Assembly: GCA_048938445.1 (NCBI GenBank)
Contig: JBHLME010000081.1
Span: 2,955-20,775 of the forward strand
DNA: 17,821 nucleotides
Direction: 5' to 3'
DNA from: Promethearchaeota archaeon
GTDB lineage: Archaea > Asgardarchaeota > Lokiarchaeia > Sigyniarchaeales > SOKP01
Position 1 is the first letter of the stretch. Every line of letters starts with the position of its first letter. Both the position numbers and the translations under genes were made by a program. Positions 832 through 17,177 of the stretch are shown here, in pieces. The notes under the pieces were generated by a model that was not told where the DNA came from, searched no databases, and worked only from the letters and a program-made list of their open reading frames with translations.

Positions 832-1437
832 GTGGAGATAAAATTTTTGGCACAAACGAGTGAAAAAACTGGAAAAATCCTAATTGATGATGCCGGAACA
901 GGAGATCTTGTTGGAAATGCATTCATAGGATTTCTTAGAAAAGAAACAGGACAAATTATATTCAAAACCATTCCAGTTGAAATGTTTAATGAAGAAAATT
1001 GGAATAAAAGAATGCCTTACAAGGTTGTTGTGGATTTAGTTAAAGAAGGATTAAAAGAATTAAAATTTCAAAAGGATAAGGATAAGATTTTAATATGTAG
1101 GGGAAACATATTTGACCAAGTGAGAACATATTTCAATGAAGATGGTATTCAACATAAACCTGCAATTATTGAAGGAAAATTACAAGATGCTGTGGAAGGA
1201 AGGTTTATTTCCCACCTTCGAAATGACTTAGGGATTAAATCAAAAAGTCTCACTAAAAAAAGCGGAGCTAAAAGATATTTTGTATTATTTAACTGGGTTT
1301 CAAAAGATTTCTATAATCGAGAGAAATATGTTAAATCAGGATTTAAAAGATGGAGAACAATTTGGAGAGAAAAAGCTCTTGAGAAGTACAATAAAATGAA
1401 ACATCCAAAACATTCTCCACATAAAATATCCAACTAA
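832..1437 (+). CDS. Conserved hypothetical protein with RNase H-like (HII/HIII motif I-like) N-terminus; probable true start TTG at 847
   Basis: 201-aa ORF. ILIDDAGTGDLVG resembles the type 2 RNase H motif GxDExGxG. GGAGAT (834-839) overlaps the GTG at 832 and lies 7 nt before the in-frame TTG at 847. Confidence 0.65.
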   Translation: MEIKFLAQTSEKTGKILIDDAGTGDLVGNAFIGFLRKETGQIIFKTIPVEMFNEENWNKRMPYKVVVDLVKEGLKELKFQKDKDKILICRGNIFDQVRTYFNEDGIQHKPAIIEGKLQDAVEGRFISHLRNDLGIKSKSLTKKSGAKRYFVLFNWVSKDFYNREKYVKSGFKRWRTIWREKALEKYNKMKHPKHSPHKISN

Positions 1438-1441
1438 ATGG

Positions 1442-2068
1442 TTAAGCTAAATCAATTTTACAGCTTTTACATGTTTTTGCATTAGGTGGATTTTCGGTTC
1501 CACATGCGAAGCAAATCTTATTATTATCATCTCCAGAGCGTTTCAAACTAATTTTATCATCAACTTTATTCTCACTTTCACTTTCTTCACTATCTAACTT
1601 GTAAATTTTTCTAGCATCTTTAATAAGTTCCCCGTTAAGTTCCCTATGAGGAGTAAGAATTTTAAAATCATTTGATGCCTTGATTTCAAGAAATCCCTCA
1701 GGCATTCCTTTTATGTCAGAATCTTCAACAATTTTATGTGTTTTGGATGAAGGTGATTCTTTATCTATATCTTGATCATCTAGTACTTGATCATCAATTG
1801 GTACCTGAGGCAATTCAATTTCCGGAACTGGTTTAGGAATCACTAATTTTACTTTTAATTCTTTAATATGTTGAACGATTTGTTCAGTTTTATTAATTAG
1901 CATTGTTCTATAAGTACTTTCGATTTTAGGATCCTTCGAAGCTTTCAAAGTCATTTCTGTTATGACAATCCATGCATCTATTGCTTTTTTTAATTCATCA
2001 TTTTTTTCATGACTATTTGCAATAGCTACTTTTTTTGCTAATTCTCTATTAAATGATTCTATGTCCAT
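1442..2068 (-). CDS. MIT-like helical domain + MIM2-like proline motif + acidic linker + C-terminal zinc ribbon protein
   Basis: Residues ~5-72 have a three-helix MIT-like pattern (A...E...LKKAIDAW.....L....K......R..L..K..QI...I.ELK). IELPQVP at aa 84-90. C-terminal CFAC-x10-CKSC. Confidence 0.65.
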   Translation of the reverse strand: MDIESFNRELAKKVAIANSHEKNDELKKAIDAWIVITEMTLKASKDPKIESTYRTMLINKTEQIVQHIKELKVKLVIPKPVPEIELPQVPIDDQVLDDQDIDKESPSSKTHKIVEDSDIKGMPEGFLEIKASNDFKILTPHRELNGELIKDARKIYKLDSEESESENKVDDKISLKRSGDDNNKICFACGTENPPNAKTCKSCKIDLA

Positions 2069-2235
2069 AGGAGATAATTAATCAAATGAACTTTTAAATC
2101 TTTTATAAACCGATCTTAGAAATTGAAAAAAAAAAGGAGTAAAAATAATTATTTAAATTAGTATTAGTTTAATAAAAATAATATTAATACCTTCTTTCGA
2201 AAAATAAATATATTATTAAATGAAATTAACCTCTC

Positions 2236-4194
2236 ATGTCTATTAGGCCTTTCACTTCAAGTGATATAGAACAATTAAGAGAAATATTTGAAAAGAATGG
2301 ATGGAAAATTGAAGGTCAAATTAACGATACCTTTAGATATAGCTTAAAAAGAAGTAATCTCATTGTTTTAACTTTAAAGTTTCCTTTAATTATACCAAAA
2401 ATGCGTTTAAATATCCCTTATGAAGTAGCAAACTTTAAAGTATCAATAGTTTTTAAATTGTGGCATTTAAATGATAAAACTTTAAAAATAGTAATATATT
2501 TCATAAAAGCGTTTAAAGAATTAGCGGAACAAGTCTATTTAGAACCTAATATCTCATTAGAAGGAAAGATACAAGAATTGCTAAACTTGTTAAATCTTTT
2601 TATGCCTGAGACAATAAAAAACGAAAATGAAAGAAGCTGGTTAAATCGTATAAGAACATCATTAATGAATAAAAGAGAAAAATATTCAGAGCAATTCAAT
2701 TTATTTGATACAATAAAAACAAGAGATATGGTAGAGATCCTTAAAACATCAGGCCTTAATCCCACTTTTAAACAACCATGGGAATTAAAAAGGGGTTTAC
2801 CAAAAATTAGGACTTCAGAAACCTTACTCTTTTCTAATGAAGAAGAGAATTTTGATGAATTTTTTATTTTTGAAAAGGGTTATATTACCTATTTTAATGA
2901 TTTAGAATATGACAAGTTTTTTGTAAGGTCATTCTTCGAAAGTTATAGTCCTTACTTACTTTTTACGATTCTAAATTATAAACAAGATTATGACTTTAAA
3001 TTTGAAATTCATGTTAAAAATTGGATAAGATTATCTCGAATGTTTTTAAATTCAATTCTGGAAATAATAAATAATGCTAATTTCAATTCAAATGATTTTA
3101 TTACATTTAATCATAAAAAAGAAATTAGTAAGGAAGATTTTATAGGAAACTTCTGTAATTTTCCTCTTTCAGCTTTAAATTATGAAAGTTCAATTTCTAA
3201 AGAGTTATTCAACTTACATAATGATTTATTTGACTCGCCCCCTACTCATTTTGAAGTAATAGAATCAAGCCTAGAATATTATACAAAAGCTGAATCATTT
3301 ATTAGGAATTATCACTTTGAACCTGCTACTCGACTTCTAAATGAAGCATTAAAAATCTTTAATAAACATAGGCAGAAAAAAGCTGTTATTTCCGTCTTAC
3401 TATTGTTAAGAAAGATTGCATCATTATTAAACGACAAAAAACTTGAACAAAATTATTTACAAAATGCATTAAATATCATTAAATCTAAGGAAGTACCTGA
3501 ACATTATCTTGTTGACATACATTATAAATTAGGAAAAGTTTACTATAAATTAAAATTATTAAATGAATCACTAAATCATTTCAATACAGTAATCACGTCC
3601 TTAAAGAAGAAAGAAACGCCCTCAAAAAAAAATGAAAACTCAGAATTAATAGATAAAGAGCAAAATTACTTAGGGATGACTTATCTTTATATGGGATTAA
3701 TATATTTGGAACAAGAGAGATTTGCAGATGCTAAAATAAATTTTAAAAATGCATTCGAAATTGGTAAAAATTCATTAAGAATTAAATTATACTTTTATTT
3801 ATTCCGGGCTATCGCATATAAAAAACGAAAAAATGACTCTCAAGCAATTAAATTGTTAACAACGGGATTAAATTCCATAAACGAGGACAATTTGACCCTA
3901 TACCGAAATTTTATCCTTAAAATCTTTCTGGAATTAGTAGATATTTACATTTTCTCTCGAAAAAGTAAAAGTAAAGCGTTATTATACCTACAACAAAGTG
4001 AAGGTTATGTTTCGACAAAAACTATTCCTGAAATACACCTTGCAATAAGATGGAATCTGTTAATGAGCAATTATTACAAGTTTTTAGTTAAAGACCACGA
4101 TAATTATCAATATTATTCAAAACAAAGCCAAAATCTAATTGCTCAATTGCATAAAATTGGAGTTAAACAAATGTATGAATTAGAATCAGATTAA
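2236..4194 (+). CDS. Large TPR-repeat protein with uncharacterised N-terminal region
   Basis: 652-aa ORF. The C-terminal half has TPR-like helices (HYKLGKVYYKLKLLNESLNHF; YLYMGLIYLEQERFADAKINFKNAFEI; RAIAYKKRKNDSQAIKLLTTGL). Confidence 0.75.
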   Translation: MSIRPFTSSDIEQLREIFEKNGWKIEGQINDTFRYSLKRSNLIVLTLKFPLIIPKMRLNIPYEVANFKVSIVFKLWHLNDKTLKIVIYFIKAFKELAEQVYLEPNISLEGKIQELLNLLNLFMPETIKNENERSWLNRIRTSLMNKREKYSEQFNLFDTIKTRDMVEILKTSGLNPTFKQPWELKRGLPKIRTSETLLFSNEEENFDEFFIFEKGYITYFNDLEYDKFFVRSFFESYSPYLLFTILNYKQDYDFKFEIHVKNWIRLSRMFLNSILEIINNANFNSNDFITFNHKKEISKEDFIGNFCNFPLSALNYESSISKELFNLHNDLFDSPPTHFEVIESSLEYYTKAESFIRNYHFEPATRLLNEALKIFNKHRQKKAVISVLLLLRKIASLLNDKKLEQNYLQNALNIIKSKEVPEHYLVDIHYKLGKVYYKLKLLNESLNHFNTVITSLKKKETPSKKNENSELIDKEQNYLGMTYLYMGLIYLEQERFADAKINFKNAFEIGKNSLRIKLYFYLFRAIAYKKRKNDSQAIKLLTTGLNSINEDNLTLYRNFILKIFLELVDIYIFSRKSKSKALLYLQQSEGYVSTKTIPEIHLAIRWNLLMSNYYKFLVKDHDNYQYYSKQSQNLIAQLHKIGVKQMYELESD

Positions 4195-4256
4195 TATGAG
4201 AAATATTTTAGATATTATTCCTTATTTTTTTAAAGTATTAGAAAAAAAATATAAAA

Positions 4257-5705
4257 TTAAATGATTTGATTTGCTAAATCCGGATCATATTTCCATAGAT
4301 CATTTAACAGTCCATCTCCTCCGAATTCTGCAACACCATCACCTCCAAAAAGCCAGAGTTTATCTTTGGAATCTATCCAAGAAATGGCATCATATCTGGC
4401 TCCAGGTCGATTTCCTAAACCAAGAAAGCCCTTAGTACCAAATATGCCATAATTACTATATTGATCAACATATTTTTCACCCGCTACCCACGTCCAATTT
4501 CCCCCGTCAAATTTCCATAGATCATTTGAATGACCTGCCATATAACCATAATCATATTCTTTTAGAATTCCAAAACCGCCAAATAACCAGAAATTATTAT
4601 CAGAATCTGTCCAAGAGATAGCTCCATTTTTACTCCCAGGATAATTTTTTGGATCTGAAATGCCTTTGGTTCCATATACTCCGTATTCGTTAAGTGTTTT
4701 ATTTCCTGATATCCATGTCCAGTTTCCACCATCAAATTTCCATAGATCGTTCAATCTATCAGGAGAATATTGTCCTATAACGTAAATCACCTTGCCTCCA
4801 AATAACCAGAGATTATCTTCAGTATCAATCCATGAAATGGTGTCTGCTCTACTTCCGGGATTATTTAAGGGATCCGGCACTCCTTTTATTCCATAATTAC
4901 CAAGATAATTAATTAATTTATATCCAGACACCCACGTCCAGTTTTCTCCGTCATATTTCCAGAGATCCCTCAAATAGCCATCCTTTCCGGATTCAGAATA
5001 TCCTACTCCACCATAGAGCCAGAAATTATCGTCAGAATCGATCCAAGAAATGGAATCTGTTCTACTCCCGGGATAATTTACGGGATCTGGCACGCCTTTC
5101 GTTCCGTATACACCATATGCATTATATGTATTATTTCCCGACACCCATGTCCAATTCACACCATCAAATTTCCATAAATCATTTAAATATCCTAATTCTC
5201 CCGATTCGTTAAGTCCTTCACCTCCAAAAAGCCAAAGATTATCATCAGAATCGATCCAAGAAATAGAACCTCTTCTACCTCCAGGATGATTAGATGCATC
5301 TGAGATACCCTTTTCACCATATATACCATTGACATTTGTAATTTTATTTCCCGACACCCATATCCAAAAAAAACCATCAAATTTCCAGAGGTCATTTAAA
5401 TATCCAAGTCCCCCCCCTCCAAATTCTGGAAATCCCTCACCGCCAAAAAGCCATAGATTATCATTTGAATCAGTCCAGGAGATAGCACCTTCTCTACTCC
5501 CGGGATATGTTATCAGACCTGGAACACCTTTTGTCCCATATACTCCATATATATCAAGAGCATTATTTCCGGATATCCAAATCCATCCTATTTCGTTAGA
5601 TGGATTGCTAGATCTGTAAATCAAAAAATAGAACAGACCTAAAACACCAAGAGAAGATCCTGCTATGATAATGATTAAAATGATAACTTTATTTTTCTTT
5701 TCCGT
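4257..5705 (-). CDS. Membrane-anchored Kelch/galactose-oxidase-like beta-propeller, 6 long repeats; start extended to ACG at 5705
   Basis: Six ~71-75-aa repeats W(T/I)W(V/I)SG...GxYGxKG...PGxRxxxISWxDSxDNLWLFGG...LNDLWKFDG. The frame stays open 27 codons upstream of the track's TTG (5624) and encodes (T/M)EKKNKVIILIIIIAGSSLGVLGLFYFL, a basic plus hydrophobic anchor, behind GGTGAT. Confidence 0.8.
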   Translation of the reverse strand, partial: TEKKNKVIILIIIIAGSSLGVLGLFYFLIYRSSNPSNEIGWIWISGNNALDIYGVYGTKGVPGLITYPGSREGAISWTDSNDNLWLFGGEGFPEFGGGGLGYLNDLWKFDGFFWIWVSGNKITNVNGIYGEKGISDASNHPGGRRGSISWIDSDDNLWLFGGEGLNESGELGYLNDLWKFDGVNWTWVSGNNTYNAYGVYGTKGVPDPVNYPGSRTDSISWIDSDDNFWLYGGVGYSESGKDGYLRDLWKYDGENWTWVSGYKLINYLGNYGIKGVPDPLNNPGSRADTISWIDTEDNLWLFGGKVIYVIGQYSPDRLNDLWKFDGGNWTWISGNKTLNEYGVYGTKGISDPKNYPGSKNGAISWTDSDNNFWLFGGFGILKEYDYGYMAGHSNDLWKFDGGNWTWVAGEKYVDQYSNYGIFGTKGFLGLGNRPGARYDAISWIDSKDKLWLFGGDGVAEFGGDGLLNDLWKYDPDLANQII

Positions 5706-5710
5706 CTTTT

Positions 5711-5716
5711 ATCACC
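5711..5716 (-). promoter_or_regulatory. SD-like motif GGTGAT for the Kelch gene
   Basis: Matches part of the archaeal SD consensus GGAGGTGAT; 5 nt upstream of the in-frame ACG. Confidence 0.55.
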
Positions 5717-6238
5717 ATTTCTAAATTTCTTTTAATTTTCTGTTAAATATCTTATCCTTTTTAACTAAGACTTAGATTATCACATTAAACTATTTAATAT
5801 CTTATTTGGTTTAAATTAGTTCATAATTATATATAAAGATTAATTCTAACACTTCTTTCTGCTATATAGTTTTTTCTTTTTAAACAAGGATTATAATAAA
5901 CGAATAAACACTATTAACTAGGATTTAATAACAATAATAATTCAATTATGAGAATAGTTGATCAATAAGAAGGATTAGAAAAAAATGAAAACTCAGACGT
6001 CAAGATTTTATGTTGTAAATTTTTTTTAAGATAAATAAAAAGACTACTTGCTTAATATACTATTATTTTAGCATATATATTTAACAAAAACATAGAATCT
6101 TACAATTAAACAAAAATAAATTTTTACTAATAATAATGAATATTAAATTGATTCTTAAAGAATATTTTTTTTCTTGGAGCAAATTTATGCAGATTTCAAG
6201 ATGTATATTAGGTCTTAACCGAAAATAGAAAGCGATTC

Positions 6239-6442
6239 TTATTTCTGATATACTGCTCTTTTTGCGCCTAAACTATCACTTTGTCCACCATATTTCCCCT
6301 TTATAATCCTCTGATTGTAAAGTTCTCGAAACCTCATGCGAGGTGCCTTCTTTGAAGTTGAATTTCTTCCTGTTCTTGGTATTTTTGGAGTTTGTTGTCG
6401 TACTTTTCCAGCTTTAGTTAAACTTCCATGACTTCCGGGAAT
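6239..6442 (-). CDS. rps30e: 30S ribosomal protein S30e (eS30), ATT start
   Basis: Absent from the ORF track. Translation (I/M)PGSHGSLTKAGKVRQQTPKIPRTGRNSTSKKAPRMRFRELYNQRIIKGKYGGQSDSLGAKRAVYQK*, 67 aa. HGSLxxAGKVRxQTPK is the eS30 signature. In-frame TAA two codons before ATT. Confidence 0.93.
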   Translation of the reverse strand: MPGSHGSLTKAGKVRQQTPKIPRTGRNSTSKKAPRMRFRELYNQRIIKGKYGGQSDSLGAKRAVYQK

Positions 6443-6447
6443 GTTTT

Positions 6448-6455
6448 ATCATCTC
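6448..6455 (-). promoter_or_regulatory. SD-like motif GAGATGAT for rps30e
   Basis: 7/8 match to GAGGTGAT, 5 nt upstream of ATT at 6442. Confidence 0.6.
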
Positions 6456-6596
6456 GTTAAATATTTTTATAATCTAGAATCATTTTAAACTCTTAAATTT
6501 TATTGATTTTAAAGAATTAATATTTTAAATCATGATTGGTTTTAATAATGATAACTTCTTTATTATAGAATATCAAATCATTAATATTTCAATAGA

Positions 6597-7085
6597 ATGA
6601 TGGATTCGAGAAAAAAGACAGTAATTATTCTCTGGATACTGGTAATTACCGTATCTATCGTGCTTATCGTGGTTGATGTGTTGTTTTTTAACATGCATTG
6701 GCTAATTTGGATTCCCATTTCGATTTTAATTTTTTTAGGATGTGCTGTTTCTTTTAGTCAATATTTTATTGAGTCGAAAAAGCATTGCCCTCGTTGTAAC
6801 GCAACGCTCCCTTCCTTATATACTAAGAATTGCCCGAAATGTGGATTAAAAATTCTAACTAAGTGTCCTGACTGTGGAACCTTTCAAAACATGTATGTTG
6901 GTGGTAAACCTATAATGTATTGTAATCAATGTGGATTACAACTTGGAATAATAAAGGAAGAAGTTGAAGCAATTAAGAATCCTTATATTCAAACTGTAAA
7001 AGTTAAATTTTGTTCGAATTGTGGTGTTAAACTCGAAGAAGAGAATCCTAAATTTTGTAGCTTGTGTGGGGGTAAAATTGAGTAA
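6597..7085 (+). CDS. Two-TM membrane protein with multiple zinc ribbons (double-zinc-ribbon-like)
   Basis: Two hydrophobic segments at the N-terminus, then six CxxC pairs: CPRC, CPKC, CPDC, CNQC, CSNC, CSLC. Confidence 0.8.
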   Translation: MMDSRKKTVIILWILVITVSIVLIVVDVLFFNMHWLIWIPISILIFLGCAVSFSQYFIESKKHCPRCNATLPSLYTKNCPKCGLKILTKCPDCGTFQNMYVGGKPIMYCNQCGLQLGIIKEEVEAIKNPYIQTVKVKFCSNCGVKLEEENPKFCSLCGGKIE

Positions 7086-7175
7086 AATATAATAATATAT
7101 TTAAAAAGTACTTCTCCATTGAATTATGCTTTTATAGAGATAACGTAACAAAAATCGACATTAAAGGTTATATTC

Positions 7176-8471
7176 TTATCTAATTTGTATTTTTTTAATG
7201 AACACGATTATTGAGATGAATGCTAAAATTCCCGTAATAATAAGAATGATAGATTCAGAAATAATAATATAATTTCCATCAATAATTATATCTCGATCAA
7301 AGAGATAAACATTATAACCACATCCCGAGACGATATATTTTCCATTTAAAGACATGTCTAAACTTGTAGAGGGTTGAGGTCCTGGAGCACTCTCTAATAG
7401 GTATTTCCATATTGGTTTTGTTTGTTTAGTGTTAAATAAATAAACTTCTCTACCACGATTCTGAGCTACAATATATCCACCATTAAATGAAATATCAACA
7501 AGATATAATGGTTGTCCAATTGAGCTTGTCCAAATTGGAAATGAGAAAAATCGATTAAATAAAAAGATATCCCCATTCAAACAACCAACTACAATAAAAT
7601 TTCCTTCTGGTGAAAATTTAATAGATTCAATGGCTTGATTAAAATTATACATCCAAATTGGGATTGAACTTCCTCTATGAAAGAGATACATCCTCCCGTA
7701 GTTTTCATCAGCAATCACTATATAACTACCATCATCTGACATTGACAAACTTGTAATGCTTGCATCTATTATTGAAAAAGTCCATAATGGTGTACTGCTC
7801 ATCTTATTGAAAAAATATAGATTTCCAGCATTATCCGCTGCTGCTATATAATTCCCATCTGAAGAAATCTCTACTTTCAATGCTAATCCACTAGTTGGAG
7901 CCTCCCACAATGGTATGGAACTTGCATAGTTAAAAAAGAAAACTTTACTAGAGCCACTTGCAGCAGCAATATAACTCCCATCATCTGAGATTGCTATGCT
8001 ATAAATCCAACCATCAGTTATATTAGTCCAAATTGGAACAGATCCAGAATTATTAAAGAGATAAACACCTTTATCATCATAGCCACCCCCAACTGCGATA
8101 TATGAACCATTAGCAGATATAGCTATGGAAGAAAAAACCTCTGATATTGAATAATTCCACATTGGTCTTTTTAGTGTAGTATGAGTATTATTTAATACAG
8201 AAAGTGTTCCATCTATTCCGCTAAAACTTATATAGGATAAGGCTGAGATATGCGAACCATCCGATGATATGGCTACTTCATTAACGGATTGAGTTCCTGG
8301 TGAATAAGTCCATAATGGAATGGTTGTTGGAATTGGACTAGTAGTTAAAAGTAGATTAGCATTATCATGATCTTCTAATAATAATGTATTTCTAACTAAA
8401 AAAAATATGTTACTAACTATTAAAGCCGCACCTATTAAAATTAAAATGACTTTACTTGTTATTGATTTCAT
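7176..8471 (-). CDS. Cell-surface WD40/PQQ-like 8-bladed beta-propeller with N-terminal signal/TM and C-terminal TM anchor
   Basis: Eight ~42-aa repeats P(L/I/M)W...(I/M)SxDGxYI...VYLFN. Hydrophobic N- and C-termini, the latter followed by KK. Several N-x-S/T sequons. Confidence 0.8.
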   Translation of the reverse strand: MKSITSKVILILIGAALIVSNIFFLVRNTLLLEDHDNANLLLTTSPIPTTIPLWTYSPGTQSVNEVAISSDGSHISALSYISFSGIDGTLSVLNNTHTTLKRPMWNYSISEVFSSIAISANGSYIAVGGGYDDKGVYLFNNSGSVPIWTNITDGWIYSIAISDDGSYIAAASGSSKVFFFNYASSIPLWEAPTSGLALKVEISSDGNYIAAADNAGNLYFFNKMSSTPLWTFSIIDASITSLSMSDDGSYIVIADENYGRMYLFHRGSSIPIWMYNFNQAIESIKFSPEGNFIVVGCLNGDIFLFNRFFSFPIWTSSIGQPLYLVDISFNGGYIVAQNRGREVYLFNTKQTKPIWKYLLESAPGPQPSTSLDMSLNGKYIVSGCGYNVYLFDRDIIIDGNYIIISESIILIITGILAFISIIVFIKKIQIR

Positions 8472-8723
8472 CTTTAATAGTAATATTAGTATTAACTTAT
8501 ATTAAAAGATTATATTAACATGAATGTACAGTCTATTTATATTGAGTAATTTAAAGACTTGTTATGATATTAATGTGATCTGAAATCTAATACAACTAAG
8601 GATAATTTAAGCATCAATTTTTGGTTCATTTCTAATAATTTTCTAAAATTTTTTAGATAATATTTTCAAAAAAACTGAAATATGATCATTAATTTGATAT
8701 AGTATAAAATATTCTCAATAATA

Positions 8724-8730
8724 TTTTATA
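8724..8730 (+). promoter_or_regulatory. Putative TATA box (TTTTATA) for tRNA-Trp
   Basis: Lies 22-28 nt upstream of tRNA position 1 (8752). The AT-rich background lowers specificity. Confidence 0.4.
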
Positions 8731-8751
8731 CCAATTGGATTTAAAGGCCTT

Positions 8752-8887
8752 GGGAGCGTGGCGAAGATTTTGCTTAGTTTCTAGGCATGATCGTAACCCG
8801 GTATCGCGGCAGGCTCCAGATAATGGTTCGGAAAATATTTTCGAAGAAGAAACTTGTTGGTCGTCGGTTCAAATCCGGCCGCTCCCA
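8752..8887 (+). tRNA. trnW: tRNA-Trp(CCA) with two introns (8767-8796 at 15/16; 8820-8851 at 37/38)
   Basis: Acceptor GGGAGCG(8752-8758)/CGCTCCC(8880-8886), discriminator A. D-stem GCGA/TCGC with spliced loop AG|CCCGGTA. Anticodon stem GCAGG/CTTGT with loop CT-CCA-G|A. T-arm GTCGG-TTCAAAT-CCGGC. CCA end not encoded; T-rich tract follows. Confidence 0.9.
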
Positions 8888-8965
8888 TTCTTTTATTCTT
8901 AATATAGGTTATATAAGAGACAAAAAAAGAAACCTTTAAAGGGACAAATTTGTTAACGAATAAAT

Positions 8966-9187
8966 ATGAACCAAAAATTATTTTTCGGTATTGGTGGTAT
9001 TGTAGCAATAATAGGTGTATATTTATTCATGAGTGGTATATCCCTCCTAATTCAACACTTTGGCTCTTCTATTTCTATATATCTAGAATGGGCATTTGTA
9101 CGGTTATTGGTTAGTATCCCATTTTTATTCATTGGATGTTTTTTAATTATTATCATATATCTCAAGACTAAAGGTAAAAATACTTAA
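8966..9187 (+). CDS. Small two-TM membrane protein
   Basis: 73 aa, two hydrophobic segments, basic C-terminus (KTKGK). Confidence 0.65.
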   Translation: MNQKLFFGIGGIVAIIGVYLFMSGISLLIQHFGSSISIYLEWAFVRLLVSIPFLFIGCFLIIIIYLKTKGKNT

Positions 9188-9242
9188 AGCATTTAATGGG
9201 TAGAAATAATTTTATAGTTCGTAAAATTCTCTTTACAGTCAT

Positions 9243-10298
9243 TTAGACACTTCCCATAGTAATTAATGATTGAATTTTTATCAAATAATTGAACATATCA
9301 TCAGTAACATCATTAACATTATCAATTTCAAGTTTAATTAATCTATCTTTTAGCGTTCCATAAATTATTTCTTTAAAACTCTTAAAACTAATCCGTGAAA
9401 ATTGCTTAAAAACGCCAATTTGTTCTTGAATTGCCAATTTGATCAATCCTCTTGCAGCAGTAGGGCTTAATTTTATTTTTTCAGCTAATTTTTCCCCTAA
9501 ATACTTGATAATTTCAGTTAATTCTTCTTGAGATAAATCCTTATCTATTATAGGTTCATATTCCTTGCGGAGAATCTTTTTAATTCGTTCAGGCAATAAC
9601 CAAGCAAATAAAAAACCTATAGATGTTATTGCTGATATAATCGAAATAAGAGCGAATACAATATAACTTTCTATTGAATTGAAAGTTCCGAATCTTACAT
9701 CAATTGGTTGAAATATGAGGATTATTTGATGAAGAGGAGCAATAAATGAGACTAATGAGATTAATTTATATCTAAATGTTATACAAGGATCAATGTCTTG
9801 CTTTTTTATTTCTTTATAAGCATGATATGATGAACCACCTAACCAAAAGAAAACCATTATGGCGCTAAAACAATCATGAGCAACTCTGATATAATGTATT
9901 TCAAGTGACGAATTATCCACTAATTTTAAAACACTTAACATTATCATTATTATAAAATTTATAAGAGAAAATATTAAGAAGATAATGGGAAGATAAGATT
10001 CACGATCTTGATGCAATATTATCGATTTTTGTTCTTTATGAAATGTTTCATTTGTAAATATAACGACCAATATCATGGAAAGACCTGTAAAAATTCTATC
10101 GACTACAGCATTCAAATCAAATAATATATCCCCTAACTGTCCTATAAAAATTAATAAAAATCCCAAACCTGCATAGAAAAGATTAATTAATTTTGTTTTA
10201 AAACTAGAAATTAATAGGTGAATGCTCACAATTGGAAAAATTCCAAGATATAATAAGATAAATAGAAAAAAAGTTAAATATAAGATTTCCAAATACAT
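9243..10298 (-). CDS. Seven-TM membrane protein fused to a ~100-aa helical C-terminal domain
   Basis: About seven hydrophobic segments in aa 1-236 ending FAWLLPERIKK, then a soluble domain (IIKYLGEKLAEKIKLSPTAARGLIKLAIQEQIG...). Confidence 0.75.
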   Translation of the reverse strand: MYLEILYLTFFLFILLYLGIFPIVSIHLLISSFKTKLINLFYAGLGFLLIFIGQLGDILFDLNAVVDRIFTGLSMILVVIFTNETFHKEQKSIILHQDRESYLPIIFLIFSLINFIIMIMLSVLKLVDNSSLEIHYIRVAHDCFSAIMVFFWLGGSSYHAYKEIKKQDIDPCITFRYKLISLVSFIAPLHQIILIFQPIDVRFGTFNSIESYIVFALISIISAITSIGFLFAWLLPERIKKILRKEYEPIIDKDLSQEELTEIIKYLGEKLAEKIKLSPTAARGLIKLAIQEQIGVFKQFSRISFKSFKEIIYGTLKDRLIKLEIDNVNDVTDDMFNYLIKIQSLITMGSV

Positions 10299-10452
10299 TT
10301 TAAAAGAAAAATCTTTTACGATTTAATAAAAGAATTATTAATATTTGAATAATTAATAAAAGATTAATGAATTAATTTCTATTTAAACATTCTTAAAAAC
10401 TTATCATTCCAATTTAGTGTTCTTTTAAAATTTTATTACATAATATCCTTTT

Positions 10453-10701
10453 TTAAAATTTTAAGGGAATTTCTTCATGTGAATTTAAAAAAAAATCATT
10501 TACAATAATAATTCTTTTAACAATTGTTCTTTTTTTAGTTTCAACATCAATTTGATGAATTTCGATTATACCCTCCTCCTCATCATTAAGGTGTTCCATG
10601 AATTCATCCAATACTTCTTCCATTGAGTACCCAGTAATCTTCCATTTTTCTGCATGTCTTCCTATAAAAATACCTTTATATGCTTTTTTATAAAGCTCCA
10701 T
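10453..10701 (-). CDS. Small hypothetical protein (82 aa)
   Basis: ATG-started ORF filling an otherwise intergenic AT-rich gap, globular composition, no recognised motif. Confidence 0.6.
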   Translation of the reverse strand: MELYKKAYKGIFIGRHAEKWKITGYSMEEVLDEFMEHLNDEEEGIIEIHQIDVETKKRTIVKRIIIVNDFFLNSHEEIPLKF

Positions 10702-10866
10702 GATATTATGAAAAAAAATTTTTATAATTCTTATACTAATTAAATTATTTTCTTCTATATATTTAAAGGGATATGGTATGATAGTGAACTATTTTATTTT
10801 CCCAAAAATAATTTAATCAAAAATGTATTAATGTAATAACATTATGCATTTTCACTAGTATTATTA

Positions 10867-11664
10867 CTATAAAATCAGTCTTTCCTTACATAGTTCAATA
10901 GCTCTAGGATTATTATCCACGCCAATCCATTTTCTTCCTAAACGTTTAGCTATAGCTAAAGTGGTACCAGATCCACAAAAGAAGTCCGCTATTAAATCAC
11001 CTTCGTTTGAAGAGGCTAAAATTATGCGTTTTAATAATTTCTCTGGTTTTTGAGTAGGATACCCGAAATACTCTTTTGACCTCGTTCTTGTTTGATATGA
11101 ATAAATATCATTCCAAACATCACCAATTAATTTTCCTGGTTTTTCATCTAAATACTGTTTTCCCCCTCTTCGTTTTCTATAACGTCTTCCATCTTCATCT
11201 TTATATATAAACATTTTTTTAACATAATCTTTGCTATAGGGGATATATTGCTTGTTAAATGTGAATTCATCGGATTTTGTATAATATAAGATGGAATCAT
11301 GTTGACGTACCCAACCTTTCACTTGACTCTTGAATCCAGAAACACTTCCAACATTCCATACAATTTCTCTCCTAAAATTATTCTTGCCAAAAATATCATC
11401 ACTTAATTTTTTTAGTTCAAATAATGCATTACTATCACAATGACAATAAAAACTTCCTGAATTTTTAAGAATTCGGTGCATTTCCTTGATCCTAATCCTC
11501 ATGAATTCTAAATATTCTTCCATTGATGACCATAGATCTGAAAATTCTTTATAATCAACTCCACTGAAGAAAGGAGGATCAATATAGATTAAATCAATCA
11601 ACTCTGATTCTATCTCTTTAATAAAATCTAAATTATCTGCTAAATATACTTGGTTAAATTTCAA
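10867..11664 (-). CDS. Site-specific DNA methyltransferase (N6-adenine/N4-cytosine, beta-class motif order), orphan
   Basis: Motif IV LIYIDPPF near the N-terminus, YPTQKPEKLL, and motif I DFFCGSGTT near the C-terminus. Confidence 0.93.
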   Translation of the reverse strand: MKFNQVYLADNLDFIKEIESELIDLIYIDPPFFSGVDYKEFSDLWSSMEEYLEFMRIRIKEMHRILKNSGSFYCHCDSNALFELKKLSDDIFGKNNFRREIVWNVGSVSGFKSQVKGWVRQHDSILYYTKSDEFTFNKQYIPYSKDYVKKMFIYKDEDGRRYRKRRGGKQYLDEKPGKLIGDVWNDIYSYQTRTRSKEYFGYPTQKPEKLLKRIILASSNEGDLIADFFCGSGTTLAIAKRLGRKWIGVDNNPRAIELCKERLIL

Positions 11665-11701
11665 TGTGAGAATTTAATAGCATTGCAAATTAATAAATAT
11701 T

Positions 11702-12094
11702 ATGGAAAAAGAGCGATTAAATGATACCTTTTTGCGAGAATTTGAAAATTATGATTTTTTATGCATCAAAGAGGAAAAAATATTTCTCGTTGGGTCAAAT
11801 ACAAGAGCTAAAGATTATTTTATAAAAGTTGAATCAATATTACAAGTAAAATACAAAAAATTGGTTTCAATTTGTTCAATTGATGGGCTTTTACATAAAG
11901 ATGAGTTTTCAAATGAAGAATGGGAGATCCTTCAAGTAATAGCTCTTAATAAATTAAAAGACCAAGATGCAATATTAGTGTTAGATGTTGATAATTATAT
12001 TGGTGATCATTCGCGTGAAGAAATCGAATATTTTGGGAATAAACTTAAAAGAACCGTATATTATTTATCCGAATTACGTAAAATTGAAAAATAA
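11702..12094 (+). CDS. Hypothetical protein, nucleoside-deoxyribosyltransferase (NDT)-like fold
   Basis: IFLVGS...F...E..L at the start and KLKDQDAILVLDVDNYIGDHSREEIEYF...VYY at the end follow the NDT-like pattern (DAIxV....G...EIxYA). Confidence 0.55.
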   Translation: MEKERLNDTFLREFENYDFLCIKEEKIFLVGSNTRAKDYFIKVESILQVKYKKLVSICSIDGLLHKDEFSNEEWEILQVIALNKLKDQDAILVLDVDNYIGDHSREEIEYFGNKLKRTVYYLSELRKIEK

Positions 12095-12152
12095 TTAATT
12101 GTTAATTTAATGATATTTAGTAAGAATTTTAAAAAACATAGTTTAAGAGAGG

Positions 12153-12938
12153 TTGTATGCTATTTTATTGAATTATATCATCGGAAGTGCTGGAAGTGGA
12201 AAATCAACTCTCACGGGAAACCTGAAAGAATATATTTTAGATAGAAATCCTGAAACTTCTGCCATAACAATGAATTTAGACCCAGGAGTAAAGTCAATGC
12301 CCTATATTCCAGATATAGATATTCGAGATCACATAATATTAGATGAAGTAATGGAAGAATATGGATTAGGCCCAAATGGAGCAATTATTTTAGCTTCAGA
12401 TCTAATGGTCAATTACTTGGATGACTTAAAGGATGAAATAGATGAATACAATGCAGATTGGGTTATAGTAGATACAGCAGGACAACTGGAGCTTTTCGCT
12501 TTTAGAGAAACTGGGCCATTAATAGCAAGTTCATTAGGATTTGGTTCTATAAAAAAGTGCGTAACTTTTCTTTTTGATTCAAATTTTGTATTAAGGCCTA
12601 ATGGATTTATTTCCACTTTATTATTAGCCGCTTCCGTGCAATTTCGCTTCAGGAATATTGCTCAAATAAATTTATTATCAAAAATAGATTTATTAGATGA
12701 AGATCAAATAGAAATGATTGTGAACTGGAGCCAAGACTTTCAGGCACTAGAAGATTCTACAAGTGAAAGAGAAGCAGGATTAATAAGAGAGTTATCTATG
12801 TTAATCTCTGAAGTTTTTATTCAATTAGGTTCGACAGCAGAATTAATTCCTTGTTCAACAAGAGAAGAGAATGGTCTCTCATTTTTATTTGGATATTTAC
12901 AACGAATATTTGATTCTGACGAATCAAAATTTTATTAA
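12153..12938 (+). CDS. GPN-loop GTPase (ATP_bind_1 family); start uncertain (TTG 12153, ATT 12162 or TTG 12168)
   Basis: P-loop GSAGSGKST, NLDPG, GLGPNG signature, DTAGQ (G3), SKID (G4). Confidence 0.93.
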   Translation: MYAILLNYIIGSAGSGKSTLTGNLKEYILDRNPETSAITMNLDPGVKSMPYIPDIDIRDHIILDEVMEEYGLGPNGAIILASDLMVNYLDDLKDEIDEYNADWVIVDTAGQLELFAFRETGPLIASSLGFGSIKKCVTFLFDSNFVLRPNGFISTLLLAASVQFRFRNIAQINLLSKIDLLDEDQIEMIVNWSQDFQALEDSTSEREAGLIRELSMLISEVFIQLGSTAELIPCSTREENGLSFLFGYLQRIFDSDESKFY

Positions 12939-12994
12939 ATAAAATATTTTAAAATAATAAATAATCAAATTACGATAGAATTAAAATTTAAATA

Positions 12995-14095
12995 ATGAAG
13001 ATAATAGGTCCAATAGCAGGAATTGGCTCGAGATTACGTCCTTTTACGTTAAATAAGCCTAAAGCATTCTTAACTGTTGCTGGGAAGACCGTTTTAGATC
13101 ATATCCTTGAAAAATTTAAAGATACTTTTGATTCTAAAACAGAACTAATTCTTATTGTTGGATATAAAAAGCGTCAAATTATTAATTATTTAAAGGAAAA
13201 AGAATATGAAAAATATTTCAATCTAACTTTTATAGAACAAATACCTCGGGGTTATGAAGAAAATATTCCCTATTATTGGGGCCTTGGAGAGGCGGTATAT
13301 TTAACTAATAAAAGATTTAAAGGTAATGATATCAAAACTCCCGAAGACAATAAAAGAAATGGAGCAATTGTTTTCTTAGGAGATATGATACCCCTTGATG
13401 ATTATTCCTACTTATTGTATAAATACTATCAATCTGATATTGATGGGATAATCACGGTCATGAAGGTCCCAAAGGAGGATGCTAGTTCATATGGCGTTGT
13501 TGAAGTTGATAAAAATAACATTATTCACAAATTAGTAGAAAAACCAAAAAATTTTATCTCAGACTTAGCAATCGCAGGTATATACGTGTTTTCTAATAAA
13601 ACAATTAAAATACTCTTTAAAAACATTAAAAAATATTTAGATCAAAGGAAGGATGATGGAAGGGAAGTCTATTTAACAGAGAGTTTACAAGACTTGGTAG
13701 ATCAAGGATTTAAAATTGAAGCAGTCGAGTTAAAGAAGGGAATTCTTGATTTTGGGAGGCCTTCTGAGGTCTTGAGAGGAAATAAATATTTAATTGATCA
13801 AAAACCTATAAAAAAAGAGGAATTTGCACAACTCCATATTACCTTTGAGAAATCTTGGGTGAAAAATCCCGTTTATATAGGAGAAAATACAAAAATAATT
13901 AATTCTGTCATAGGACCTCACGTTTCAATTGGTAAAGGGTCCATCATTGCAAATTCAATTATTGGCAACTCCGTGATTGAAAAAAATGCGAGATTAAATA
14001 ATATAATTACAGAAAATTCAATTTTTGGGAGCAATGTTAGTATTGATGGGATTATAAAAGATAATTTAATAATTGGAGATAAAAGCGTATATTAA
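12995..14095 (+). CDS. Sugar-phosphate nucleotidyltransferase (glucose-1-phosphate thymidylyltransferase-like) with C-terminal left-handed beta-helix
   Basis: AGIGSRLRPFT..KPK, FLGD, YGVV, LVEKP, GIYVF, DFG, then hexapeptide repeats (PVYIGENTKIINSVIGPHVSIG). Confidence 0.9.
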   Translation: MKIIGPIAGIGSRLRPFTLNKPKAFLTVAGKTVLDHILEKFKDTFDSKTELILIVGYKKRQIINYLKEKEYEKYFNLTFIEQIPRGYEENIPYYWGLGEAVYLTNKRFKGNDIKTPEDNKRNGAIVFLGDMIPLDDYSYLLYKYYQSDIDGIITVMKVPKEDASSYGVVEVDKNNIIHKLVEKPKNFISDLAIAGIYVFSNKTIKILFKNIKKYLDQRKDDGREVYLTESLQDLVDQGFKIEAVELKKGILDFGRPSEVLRGNKYLIDQKPIKKEEFAQLHITFEKSWVKNPVYIGENTKIINSVIGPHVSIGKGSIIANSIIGNSVIEKNARLNNIITENSIFGSNVSIDGIIKDNLIIGDKSVY

Positions 14096-14259
14096 ATTAT
14101 TTTTTACTAATATTTATTGAAAAACTATAATTTAAAATTCAAAAAGATAATCATATATTAATAATAATAACAAGTTATTTAAGAAAAAATAGGAATGAAT
14201 AAAAGTATGAATTTTTTCTAATTATTTAAAAGTAATAAAAACCGGATGGATGAATAAAT

Positions 14260-15717
14260 TTGACTAATTATATTGCTTTCGATGGAGGCCATAAATGTAG
14301 AGGTAATATTGATGAAAACTATTCTCAATTAAAGGAGTTATTAAATTCAAATAATTTTGAATGTGTTAAATTTATTGATATGATCACTCAAAGCACGTTA
14401 AAACCATATGATATCTTGGTCTTTGCTTGCCCAGATTTTGCTAAAATCACGCCCCAAGAAATAAATGAAATGGAGGCTTGGGTCAAGAATGATGGGGGCG
14501 GATTGTTATTACTTTCTCATGCTGGTGGTGATAGGGGAAGAAGTAGCAATTTAAACGAATTAGCTGAACTTTTTGGGATTGCTTTTGAGAACGACCAAGT
14601 ATTAGATGACAAAAGTAATTTAGGACTAGAAAATTTACCTATAATCTATAATACAAATTTCAATCCACCGCATACTATAACAAATGATATAGACTCAATA
14701 TGTTATAGAGCTGGATGTTCTCTCAGTATAATTGGAGAGGGGGCTTTTGCAATTGCCACTTCTAATGAAACTTCTGATCCATTTCAAACACCATTAATAT
14801 GCATTTCCGAGATGGGAAATGGAAGAGTATGTGCAATAGGCAGTTATGAAATGTTTAGAAATAAAGTAGGAGGAGGACTTGGATATAAAGAACACACTAA
14901 TTTAGCATTGAATTTATTTAAATGGCTTGTTTCGGAAACTAGGTCTGATATAAGAATTAGCCAGGGGATTCAACCTCCATCAACTCAAGTTCGAGCGCCA
15001 ACTGAGCATTATCACGCAGCAGAACAACAAAATAGCCCAGGAAGGTCTGTAGACATTGATACCGCAAATATTAGTTATGATATTAGAATTTCAAAAAAAA
15101 GTGAATTAATGGCTCTTTTAAAACTCTTTTCTGATCAAATTCATACGATTCAAAAAACTATTGATGTTCTTATTGAAAAAGTAGCACTTGAAGATGATGC
15201 AACTTTTCAAGGGGCTTCTTATAGCCAAGCGACTTCTGATTATCAATACCAGCAAGAGGAATATCAAGATCAATATGAACAACAATATACCGATTATGAA
15301 CAGTATGATTCTAGTTATGAAGAATTAACTGGAGATGAAAGTTTTATAGACTATGAATACCAAACTCAAGGTAAACATACTTTATCTTCTCTTCCAGAAA
15401 GACCAAGTAGTTTAAAAGACGCAGAAGAACAATCTGAAACTTTATCAGCACCAAAATTTAAATCATCATCCAAATCTAAAGGAAAAAAAAGTGGATCTAG
15501 TGATGTAATTCCTGATACCGAATCACTTGAAGCAGAAAAGCAAAGTTTAGGGAGCAAGGTCAATTCTGTAAAAGAATTGATATCGTTTATTGATAAGAAG
15601 CATAAATCTGGGAAATTAGACGATAAATCTCATGATAAACAAATTAAAAAACTTGAGAAAGATCTTAACAAAGCCCAAAGTAGAATCGATGCGATTAATA
15701 AGATTCTTAAGAAATAA
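14260..15717 (+). CDS. GIFT (GldG/IFT52-like, GATase-I-like fold) domain protein with low-complexity linker and C-terminal coiled coil
   Basis: aa 1-~223: DILVFACP....TPQEI.....WV..GGGLLLL...GG......NLNELAELFGI.F.ND.V...GRV.AIGS.EMF......N...WL. Then Tyr/Gln/Glu-rich and Ser/Lys-rich segments and a charged helical C-terminus. TTG start after GGATGA. Confidence 0.7.
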   Translation: MTNYIAFDGGHKCRGNIDENYSQLKELLNSNNFECVKFIDMITQSTLKPYDILVFACPDFAKITPQEINEMEAWVKNDGGGLLLLSHAGGDRGRSSNLNELAELFGIAFENDQVLDDKSNLGLENLPIIYNTNFNPPHTITNDIDSICYRAGCSLSIIGEGAFAIATSNETSDPFQTPLICISEMGNGRVCAIGSYEMFRNKVGGGLGYKEHTNLALNLFKWLVSETRSDIRISQGIQPPSTQVRAPTEHYHAAEQQNSPGRSVDIDTANISYDIRISKKSELMALLKLFSDQIHTIQKTIDVLIEKVALEDDATFQGASYSQATSDYQYQQEEYQDQYEQQYTDYEQYDSSYEELTGDESFIDYEYQTQGKHTLSSLPERPSSLKDAEEQSETLSAPKFKSSSKSKGKKSGSSDVIPDTESLEAEKQSLGSKVNSVKELISFIDKKHKSGKLDDKSHDKQIKKLEKDLNKAQSRIDAINKILKK

Positions 15718-15809: not shown

Positions 15810-17177
15810 TTATTTAATGATTTCTTGTTCTCTTTCTTTATCGATTTGTTGATCCTGGTTTTTTGCTTTAGCTTTAAATTCATCGGGAAGATAAGGATAG
15901 GCATGTTTATAAGTTATTTCAAAAAAGTCTTTATCACTGATTCCTTTAGTTATCTTCTTTAGCTCCTCTTTAACATTATTAAAAGCGGTTCTGATTTCTT
16001 CTTTTGATGTAGATTCATGCTTGCTTTTCACTTCTTCAACGATTTTAGCAATAATTTCTTCAGGGATGTCCAGTCCTAATACTCCTACTCTCTCTTTAAG
16101 TGCATGAATAACAGATTTTTTTCCCGAAAACTTTCCTAAATAAAATTGCCTTCGTCTTCCTACGATTCGTGGATTGATTGGTTCATAAGTGAGAGGATGA
16201 GCCAAAATTCCTGCTATATGAAGTCCACTTTCATGACTAAACGCATAATCACCTACAATTGGCTTATATTGAGAAATAGGTTTGCAAAAATATTGTTCAC
16301 ATATTCCACTTAATTCAGTTAATTTGTTTAATTTTATTCCCGTGTTAATTCCCAAACGATGTAATATTAGAACCACTTCTTCTAAAGCAGCATTTCCTGC
16401 ACGTTCCCCAAAACCATTTATACATGTATGAGGGAAAGTACATCCTTCTATAACTCCTTGGATCGTGTTTGCAACCGCGAGACCAAAATCATTATGAGTG
16501 TGGATTCCCATCTCAGTGTTTTTCTTTAATGGTATCACTACTTCTTCTTTTATTTTATTCACTAAATACCGAGTGGAATGTGGCGTGAGTACTCCTACAG
16601 TGTCTCCTATAATTATTCTTTCTGCACCTGCTTTGATAGCAGTTGTAAAAACATTTTTTAGATGTTCAAAATCGCATCGAGTAGTATCTTCACTCACCCA
16701 ATTTACTCTTAAATTATTATCTATAGCATATTCAATTCCCGTTTTTACCATTTCAAGTTGCTGTTCTGCAGTATGCTTTAATGTTTTTCTGAAAATGGGT
16801 GATATTGGCATGAAAATTACAATTTCTTCGAGATCTGCCTCGATACAAGCATCAATATCTTGCTTTCTTGGTCGAGCAATACCCAAAATAGTAGAACGTC
16901 TTAAATTTTCATTTACGATGGTTTTTACAATTTTTTTTTCGGTTTCAGAAACTGCAGGAAAACCTACTGCAATGAGCTTTACTCCGATATCATCCATTCT
17001 TTTTGCTAAATCTAATTTTTCTTCAAGTGTCAAATATACCGTTGGACTTTGTTCTCCATCTCTAAGGGTTTCGTCCCAAATACAAACTCTTTCTGGAAGA
17101 TTCTTATTTTCTAAAGCAATTTTATTATAATCTGTAAGGAGGCTCTCAAGTTCCTCTTTAGAGAATTTATACGACAT
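15810..17177 (-). CDS. Homocitrate/2-isopropylmalate synthase family enzyme (DRE-TIM) lacking the LeuA allosteric domain; AksA/homocitrate-synthase-like
   Basis: DETLRDGEQ, HTHNDFGLAVAN, NGFGERAGNA, HESGLH, YEPI.P..VG, LGKFSG. The short helical C-terminus shows no LeuA regulatory domain. Substrate cannot be determined from sequence alone. Confidence 0.88.
   Translation of the reverse strand: MSYKFSKEELESLLTDYNKIALENKNLPERVCIWDETLRDGEQSPTVYLTLEEKLDLAKRMDDIGVKLIAVGFPAVSETEKKIVKTIVNENLRRSTILGIARPRKQDIDACIEADLEEIVIFMPISPIFRKTLKHTAEQQLEMVKTGIEYAIDNNLRVNWVSEDTTRCDFEHLKNVFTTAIKAGAERIIIGDTVGVLTPHSTRYLVNKIKEEVVIPLKKNTEMGIHTHNDFGLAVANTIQGVIEGCTFPHTCINGFGERAGNAALEEVVLILHRLGINTGIKLNKLTELSGICEQYFCKPISQYKPIVGDYAFSHESGLHIAGILAHPLTYEPINPRIVGRRRQFYLGKFSGKKSVIHALKERVGVLGLDIPEEIIAKIVEEVKSKHESTSKEEIRTAFNNVKEELKKITKGISDKDFFEITYKHAYPYLPDEFKAKAKNQDQQIDKEREQEIIK

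Follow-up and report, generated by a model that had tools for sequence, protein, structure and literature searches.

Which codons can start a gene in a lokiarchaeon, and does the answer depend on a Shine-Dalgarno (SD) sequence? The question is raised by a 17,821-nucleotide stretch of a Promethearchaeota genome of the order Sigyniarchaeales, referred to here as the window (contig C226:2955-20775). In the window, five genes seemed to carry an SD-like element at a near-constant distance from a non-ATG codon (TTG 847, ACG 5705, ATT 6442, ATT 12162 and TTG 14260), whereas 11 ATG-started genes seemed to carry none. The original prediction took this as a sign of two modes of initiation, in which near-cognate codons start the SD-led genes, whereas ATG genes lack an SD and are leaderless. 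The window belongs to a metagenome-assembled genome (MAG, G000) of 4.63 Mb in 256 contigs, with a GC content of 29.6%, a completeness of 96.5% and a contamination of 8.2% (CheckM-type figures). We read the locus as a case of ordinary archaeal SD initiation with an unusually wide start-codon set, and we give this reading a probability of roughly 85%.

By direct reading of the sequence, all five sites were found at these coordinates and at the spacings claimed for them. The 16S rRNA 3' tail is identical in five relatives from three families, and because it reads GGAUCACCUCCU, the SD word was taken as AGGAGGTGATCC. Aligned spacing is the distance between the T of GGAGGT and the start codon. Duplex energies were calculated between the -20 to -4 stretch and the relatives' tail, which may differ from the host's own tail, and the five sites gave -6.4 (847), -8.8 (5705), -6.5 (6442), -7.4 (12162) and -7.8 (14260) kcal/mol. 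The 11 ATG genes of the window gave +0.7 to -4.1 kcal/mol. The DNA methylase gene (Pfam N6_N4_Mtase, 10867-11664, minus strand), which had been singled out as a TTG start without an SD, gave -1.2 kcal/mol. The pattern in the window is therefore real, as these values confirm. It is also an extreme sample: the probability of 11 of 11 ATG genes being SD-less is ~0.03, because 26.6% of ATG starts genome-wide reach -5 kcal/mol, and the clean split is confined to the window and absent genome-wide. A concern about circularity that came with the observation was justified, as SDs had been noticed where no ATG was on offer. The frames at 5705 and 6442 are each closed by a TAA two codons before the proposed start, and there is no ATG, GTG or TTG (canonical codons hereafter) before the conserved N-terminus.

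Orthologue alignments of two window genes confirm ATT as a real start codon in this genome. The first gene encodes the 67-residue ribosomal protein eS30 (6239-6442, minus strand; Pfam Ribosomal_S30 at residues 5-49), with its ATT at 6442-6440. Its SD, GAGATGAT (6448-6455, minus strand), equals GAGGTGAT with one mismatch and has an aligned spacing of 8 to the ATT. The frame opens two codons before the ATT, and the first in-frame ATG is at residue 35 of 67; an automatic gene caller would therefore keep under half of the gene or drop it. Thirty eS30 loci of the order were fetched, one of them unreadable, and the codon preceding PGSHGSL is ATG in 20 of 29 and ATT in 9 of 29, so that the alignment places the window ATT at the ATG of the relatives. 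The ATT loci are spread over four genera and two families and include a closed genome (G041, locus L028), and an SD-like element is present at nearly all 29 loci. In a phylum-wide sample of 27 readable loci, ATT was confined to three loci, all from the family to which the window belongs; eS30 in the other Asgard families of this sample has ATG, plus one GTG and one TTG.

The second gene encodes a GPN-loop GTPase (12162-12938, plus strand; Pfam ATP_bind_1 from residue 6). Its start is ATT 12162 and not TTG 12153 or TTG 12168, and its SD, GAGAGGT (12147-12153, plus strand), lies at aligned spacing 8. This start had been proposed tentatively, and the orthologues now confirm it: among 16 readable loci of 20 fetched, four (G000, G002, G010 and G008) have ATT at the position where ten have the ATG of an MLLNY-type N-terminus, and the remaining loci have GTG in one and possibly ATC in one. 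No canonical codon is nearby in G010 and G008, and an AGGT-type SD is kept at spacing 8 among the orthologues. The ribosomal protein uS10 shows similar exchanges. Its first residue across 30 loci is encoded by ATG in 9, GTG in 7, TTG in 4, ATA in 3 and ATT in 2, and three further loci have a canonical codon one or two codons upstream.

To extend the count to the whole MAG, we used a set of 4067 stop-to-stop frames of at least 80 codons, selected for their codon-usage score, which together span 86% of the genome. Exact SD matches of at least 5 nucleotides peak at aligned spacing 8 before ATG, TTG and GTG, and likewise before ATT and ATA. SD sites at spacing 5-12 number 416 before 2828 open reading frames (ORFs) whose first canonical codon is ATG, 109 before 723 first-TTG ORFs and 31 before 368 first-GTG ORFs. 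At ORF 5' edges, we counted 620 SD sites for 3918 ORFs, or roughly one for every six ORFs. Of the 620, 463 are followed at spacing 3-15 by a canonical start in frame (ATG 334, TTG 101, GTG 28); among the 157 edge sites that have none, ATT, ATA or ATC (ATH hereafter; AUH in mRNA) stands at spacing 7-9 in 85. Under a strict rule that additionally allows no canonical codon upstream, ATH is found at 58 of 102 sites (ATA 27, ATT 24, ATC 7). The next three in-frame codons at the same sites are ATH in 9, 18 and 11 of 102 (38/306; Fisher p=3.9e-18).

Controls gave lower fractions. Scrambled control words gave ATH in 11/42, 3/16 and 6/28, with 80-204 edge sites in place of the 620 of the real word. A geometry control, made of TGA-bounded ORFs without an SD, gave 48/253. 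The latter is needed because GGTGA contains a TGA that shares its reading frame with a start placed at spacing 8, and for the same reason many such frames open two codons before the start. We note that an SD with GGTGA ends the upstream frame two codons ahead of the start (5705 is an example) and blocks N-terminal extension by read-in. Two other approaches were of no use: a control with non-coding heads yielded three cases only, and an energy-window excess count of ATH starts was rejected as not discriminating, because neighbouring codons share one SD.

Protein domains bear on the same candidates. In 49 of them, at least eight codons precede any canonical codon, and the 40 of these with the longest SDs were scanned against Pfam (E<=1e-5). 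A match was found for 23 of the 40. The domain of 14 of these 23 already begins before any canonical codon is reached; in 9, the first or second position of the profile falls at residues 2-11 (ApbA, S10, ThrRS editing domain, CobS, Roc, NTP_transferase, TauE, DnaJ and CbiA). The nine matched candidates outside the 14 are uninformative, with the domain further in. Taken together, at least 58-85 genes (1.5-2.2% of ORFs), including those of eS30, uS10, DnaJ and the GPN GTPase, would start at an isoleucine codon. The claim that gene callers restricted to canonical codons truncate such genes is borne out: the first canonical codon lies a median of 10 codons in, and some of the genes would lose more than 100.

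The census speaks differently to the proposal of two exclusive modes. SD-led genes are mostly ATG-started genome-wide (334 of 521), an outcome that had been named beforehand as contradicting the proposal, and the statement that ATG genes have no SD does not hold either, since 14-27% of ATG genes carry one. For SDs of at least 5 nucleotides (n=521), the starts are ATG in 64%, TTG in 19%, GTG in 5% and ATH in 11%. The shares become 52%, 24%, 6% and 18% for at least 6 nucleotides (n=192, ATG 100 of them), and 54%, 17%, 6% and 24% for at least 7 nucleotides (n=71). The eS30, GPN and uS10 orthologues also retain their SD with either ATG or ATT. Two exclusive modes would fit the window perfectly (5/5 versus 11/11), and the enrichment of TTG and ATH starts behind SDs is in their favor, as is the gene at 847, where an SD and TTG here stand against an SD-less ATG in relatives. 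Given the genome-wide counts, we consider this explanation very unlikely.

What holds is a graded version, in which start codon and SD are statistically associated without forming two exclusive modes. Among unambiguous starts, duplexes of -5 kcal/mol or stronger occur at 54.7% of TTG (n=179), 31% of GTG (n=74) and 26.6% of ATG (n=1279) starts and in 16.2% of control windows; at -7 kcal/mol, the values are 28.5% for TTG, 14.1% for ATG and 6.6% for control windows. An SD of at least 6 nucleotides is found at 34/58 ATH, 46/101 TTG and 100/334 ATG starts (ATH versus ATG, p=4e-5; TTG versus ATG, p=0.005). The spacing of ATH starts is also tighter, with 41/58 at exactly 8. SD-less genes are overwhelmingly ATG-started, and SD-led genes are more often internal to operons. 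A position within 40 nucleotides behind a same-strand gene was found for 43% of SD-led ATG, 18% of other ATG and 26% of ATH starts; as 26% compares with 43%, reinitiation is not the main route for ATH.

The ATG genes without an exact SD are not free of SD-like signals. G makes up 20-24% at -11 to -8 in these genes, against a background of ~9%. Between -14 and -8 of ATG genes, GATGAA, AGATGA, AGTGAA and GGATAA are 4-8 times enriched even where no exact SD is present, and AGGTAA is also enriched. Weak SDs are thus widespread, as this enrichment of G and of SD-like words indicates. Upstream of SD-less ATG genes, a TATA element, which leaderless genes would be expected to have at about -27, gave no clean positional signal, and an A-rich peak at -26 to -15 is confounded by selection for in-frame stops. 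Positional base and k-mer scans, which returned only SD-like words or A-rich words confounded by selection, were rejected as evidence on leaderless mRNAs either way.

Two of the five SD-led window genes start at TTG. The gene at 847-1437 (plus strand) has no Pfam match, and its SD-like element, GGAGAT (834-839, plus strand), lies 7 nucleotides before the TTG; GTG 832 falls within the SD, and TTG 847 is the first canonical codon outside it. Orthologues from the same genus and the same family have the SD-less ATG directly before IEIDDAGTGD, ten residues further in, so that the window gene carries a 10-residue N-terminal extension with SD and TTG relative to these loci (L175-L187). The gene at 14260-15717 (plus strand) encodes a protein with an IFT52 GIFT / ABC_transp_aux-like domain (Pfam). 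Its degenerate SD-like element, GGATGGATGA (14244-14253, plus strand), has an aligned spacing of 8 to the TTG and is of the same kind as the degenerate words above. Same-genus orthologues have a GATGA-type element at spacing 8, followed by TTG in G004 and by ATG in G002.

The ACG at 5705 is less certain. It is the proposed start (5705-5703) of a gene for a Kelch-repeat membrane protein (4257-5705, minus strand; Pfam Kelch families). The SD, GGTGAT (5711-5716, minus strand), is an exact 6-nucleotide match at aligned spacing 8, and its T is also the first base of an in-frame stop (TAA, 5711-5709) located two codons before the ACG. No canonical codon occurs before TTG 5624, which falls within the N-terminal membrane helix. 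No orthologue of the gene was found among 20 relatives searched, only paralogues. Four paralogues in the same genome have ATG before the same lysine-rich stretch and helix, and in the closest of them (contig C24, 72% identical) the ATG (MEKK...) aligns with the window ACG (TEKK...). Genome-wide at spacing 6-10, ACG was observed 8 times against 1.8 expected from the flanking spacings, and CTG 5 times against 0.9; AAG (17 versus 15.0) and AGG (4 versus 4.7) show no excess. A relative (G012, contig C27) also has an ACG behind a 6-nucleotide SD at spacing 8, 57 codons before any canonical start. These counts and the case in G012 are suggestive of ACG and CTG as starts and no more.

It might instead be that the ACG at 5705 is unused, and that the gene starts at an ATC or ATT within the helix or at TTG 5624, or has recently lost its start. 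The small number of cases behind the ACG enrichment is in line with this, as is the ACG being conserved in no orthologue. On the other side, the strongest SD of the window stands exactly at spacing 8 before the ACG, the ACG aligns with the ATG of the 72%-identical paralogue, the lysine-rich stretch before the helix is kept in all five Kelch paralogues, and the codons downstream of the ACG have no SD. An unused ACG is a serious possibility at this gene, yet one we hold to be the less probable of the two, and we lean, with some reserve, towards ACG as the actual start codon. A relaxed choice of start codon behind an SD is supported for ATT, at 6442 and 12162 by orthologues, and stays plausible but thinly supported and unproven for ACG.

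Could the ATT and ACG codons be assembly errors, or belong to genes that are dying? The MAG consists of 256 contigs with 8% contamination, and the ACG gene has paralogues only, which leaves some room for this. We compared the window with other assembled contigs (not raw reads). Positions 5300-6522 are reproduced with zero differences by contigs from X1 and X2 (possibly the source samples), and a 265-nucleotide contig from another study (X3) is an exact match to 5463-5727, which covers the ACG. Diverged contigs from X3 and X4 differ at 6437 and at 6444-6447 and leave the ATT unchanged. In addition, the swap between ATG and ATT at eS30 recurs in four genera, the reading frames are intact, and the domains are complete. 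Errors or decay are therefore extremely unlikely in our view.

We next consider how far the trait extends. At loci of the Loki order, where 107 SD-led starts are canonical, ATH is found at 11/37 strict sites versus 14/111 neighbouring codons. Four genomes from other Asgard families yielded 6/31 versus 8/93 along with 148 canonical starts, and a single gene accounts for two of the six. By these figures the trait seems stronger in the Loki order than in the four genomes, although the samples are small (100-400 kb each) and the sums for order and families are given without a significance test. G020 has 61 SD edge sites for 331 ORFs. One of the four genomes of other families, with a GC content of 39% (G081:C1:1000001-1200000, loci L232-L241), has TTG at 18 and ATG at 19 of 40 SD-led starts, and no ATH candidate was found among these 40.

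In ordinary SD initiation with a wide codon set, pairing of the SD with the 16S 3' tail would put the codon at spacing 8 in the P site. The initiator tRNA would presumably read AUH with a third-position mismatch, and the product is predicted to begin with methionine. The data suggest that a stronger and more exactly spaced SD may compensate for the mismatch, and a few genes may use ACG or CTG. A different mechanism would have ATH read by a dedicated initiator-like tRNA, or through a lineage-specific change in aIF1 or aIF2, and not by plain wobble. The apparent strength of the trait in the Loki order, from small samples, is compatible with such a change, but there is no direct support for a dedicated tRNA or a factor change. 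No initiator-like tRNA with another anticodon was found in the MAG, whose tRNA set is incomplete, and in bacteria AUU starts are handled by the normal initiator tRNA. We regard this mechanism as quite unlikely. The sole tRNA-Met(CAT) found in the MAG lies in a tRNA array on contig C215 (~6484-15106 of a 21.5-kb contig, GC content 30%), which holds 28 of the 50 Rfam tRNA matches of the MAG and is perhaps viral or mobile.

Several points weigh against ordinary SD initiation with a wide codon set. The starts are known here from sequence alone, and the gene set is based on ORFs and was built for this analysis, not curated as an annotation. The MAG has no 16S gene. Its initiator tRNA was not found with ARAGORN, a short anticodon-arm pattern or Rfam tRNA matches, in a tRNA set that is incomplete. 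The method detects ATH starts only beside an SD, so that SD dependence is assumed by it. At 44 of the 102 strict sites, the codon is one other than ATH, and ACG accounts for 3 of the 102, which makes its genome-wide support thin. There are 168 ORFs with at least 20 coding-like codons before the first canonical start, and only about one third have an edge SD with ATH; the other 112, which an SD with ATH does not account for, comprise fragments and weak-SD cases besides ORFs of neither sort. Finally, the uS10 N-terminus in two loci of genus g8 (L286, G012:C7; L287, G046:C131) aligns with a TCG in a frame open for 16 codons. The SD CCGGTGAG lies just upstream, and no ATG, GTG, TTG, ATT, ATA or ATC was found at SD distance in these two loci.

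Other features of the window were identified by Pfam: a MoCF-type gene ending at 751 (minus strand), a TPR protein (2236), a zinc-ribbon protein (6597), a WD40 protein ending at 8471 (minus strand), a nucleotidyl transferase (12995) and a homocitrate/isopropylmalate synthase-like gene ending at 17177 (minus strand). An Rfam tRNA match lies at 8752-8887 (plus strand; 136 nucleotides, 36 bits, E=2e-4), and this tRNA probably contains an intron. ARAGORN missed it by default; with the intron option, it gave Ser(AGA) with a 62-nucleotide intron, a call we do not trust. Several short listed ORFs overlap the match. Between the start of the Kelch gene and the end of the eS30 gene, ~520 nucleotides (5717-6238) are AT-rich, with no ORF of at least 50 residues and no Rfam match at the gathering score.

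The mechanism is of a known kind, in a new lineage and at an unusual scale. Bacterial AUU, AUA and AUC starts behind an SD are known from infC and pcnB of E. coli, and NCBI table 11 includes ATT, ATC and ATA among its start codons. As in bacteria, a codon with a third-position mismatch is set by an SD at fixed spacing, swaps with ATG among orthologues and is missed by gene finders. Unlike bacteria, Lokiarchaea have an archaeal, eukaryote-like machinery (aIF1, aIF1A and aIF2, and no IF3), and the starts make up 11-24% of SD-led genes here, whereas few genes use them in bacteria. There is also no sign here of the autoregulation seen with E. coli infC. Eukaryotes initiate at near-cognate codons (CUG, ACG, AUU and others) under the control of eIF1. 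The same one-mismatch codon set is shared, but eukaryotes rely on scanning and sequence context and reach low efficiency, whereas here the SD sets the position.

Within the archaea, SD sequences have been described as not prevalent, or rare, in Lokiarchaea (PMC7531240, PMC12993045). The MAG resembles the archaeal mix of SD-led and leaderless genes in that its SDs are in the minority (620 edge sites for 3918 ORFs) and its SD-led genes are more often operon-internal. The sections of these two papers available to us make no mention of ATH starts, and a full-text literature search found no paper on such starts in Asgard archaea. Near-cognate initiation has been seen experimentally in another archaeon, Haloferax volcanii, where about 30% of the putative alternative initiation sites in harringtonine ribosome profiling were near-cognate and were set aside (PMC7261190). 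The sites in Haloferax volcanii are extra or internal ones, in a GC-rich organism whose mRNAs are mostly leaderless, whereas here the near-cognate codon is the sole start of conserved genes.

It is possible, though we hold the idea only tentatively, that Lokiarchaeial ribosomes have a lineage-wide lowered stringency for start codons when a strong, exactly spaced SD anchors the mRNA. AUU, AUA and AUC, and rarely ACG and CUG, would then be the sole starts of at least 2% of genes, including ribosomal protein genes, and the weaker the codon, the stronger its SD would be. Such a trait would be pronounced in the Loki order, with its low GC content, whereas other Asgard classes would show it weakly or not at all. 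Because SD strength and codon weakness are linked, the fidelity of start-codon selection becomes open to testing in an initiation system that is archaeal and of the eukaryote type. In practice, Asgard genes are mis-annotated systematically. The search of Asgard genomes for eukaryote-like proteins relies almost wholly on automatic calls that allow only ATG, GTG and TTG, and presence/absence tables, predictions of N-terminal signals and membrane anchors, and structure models would inherit the truncation error.

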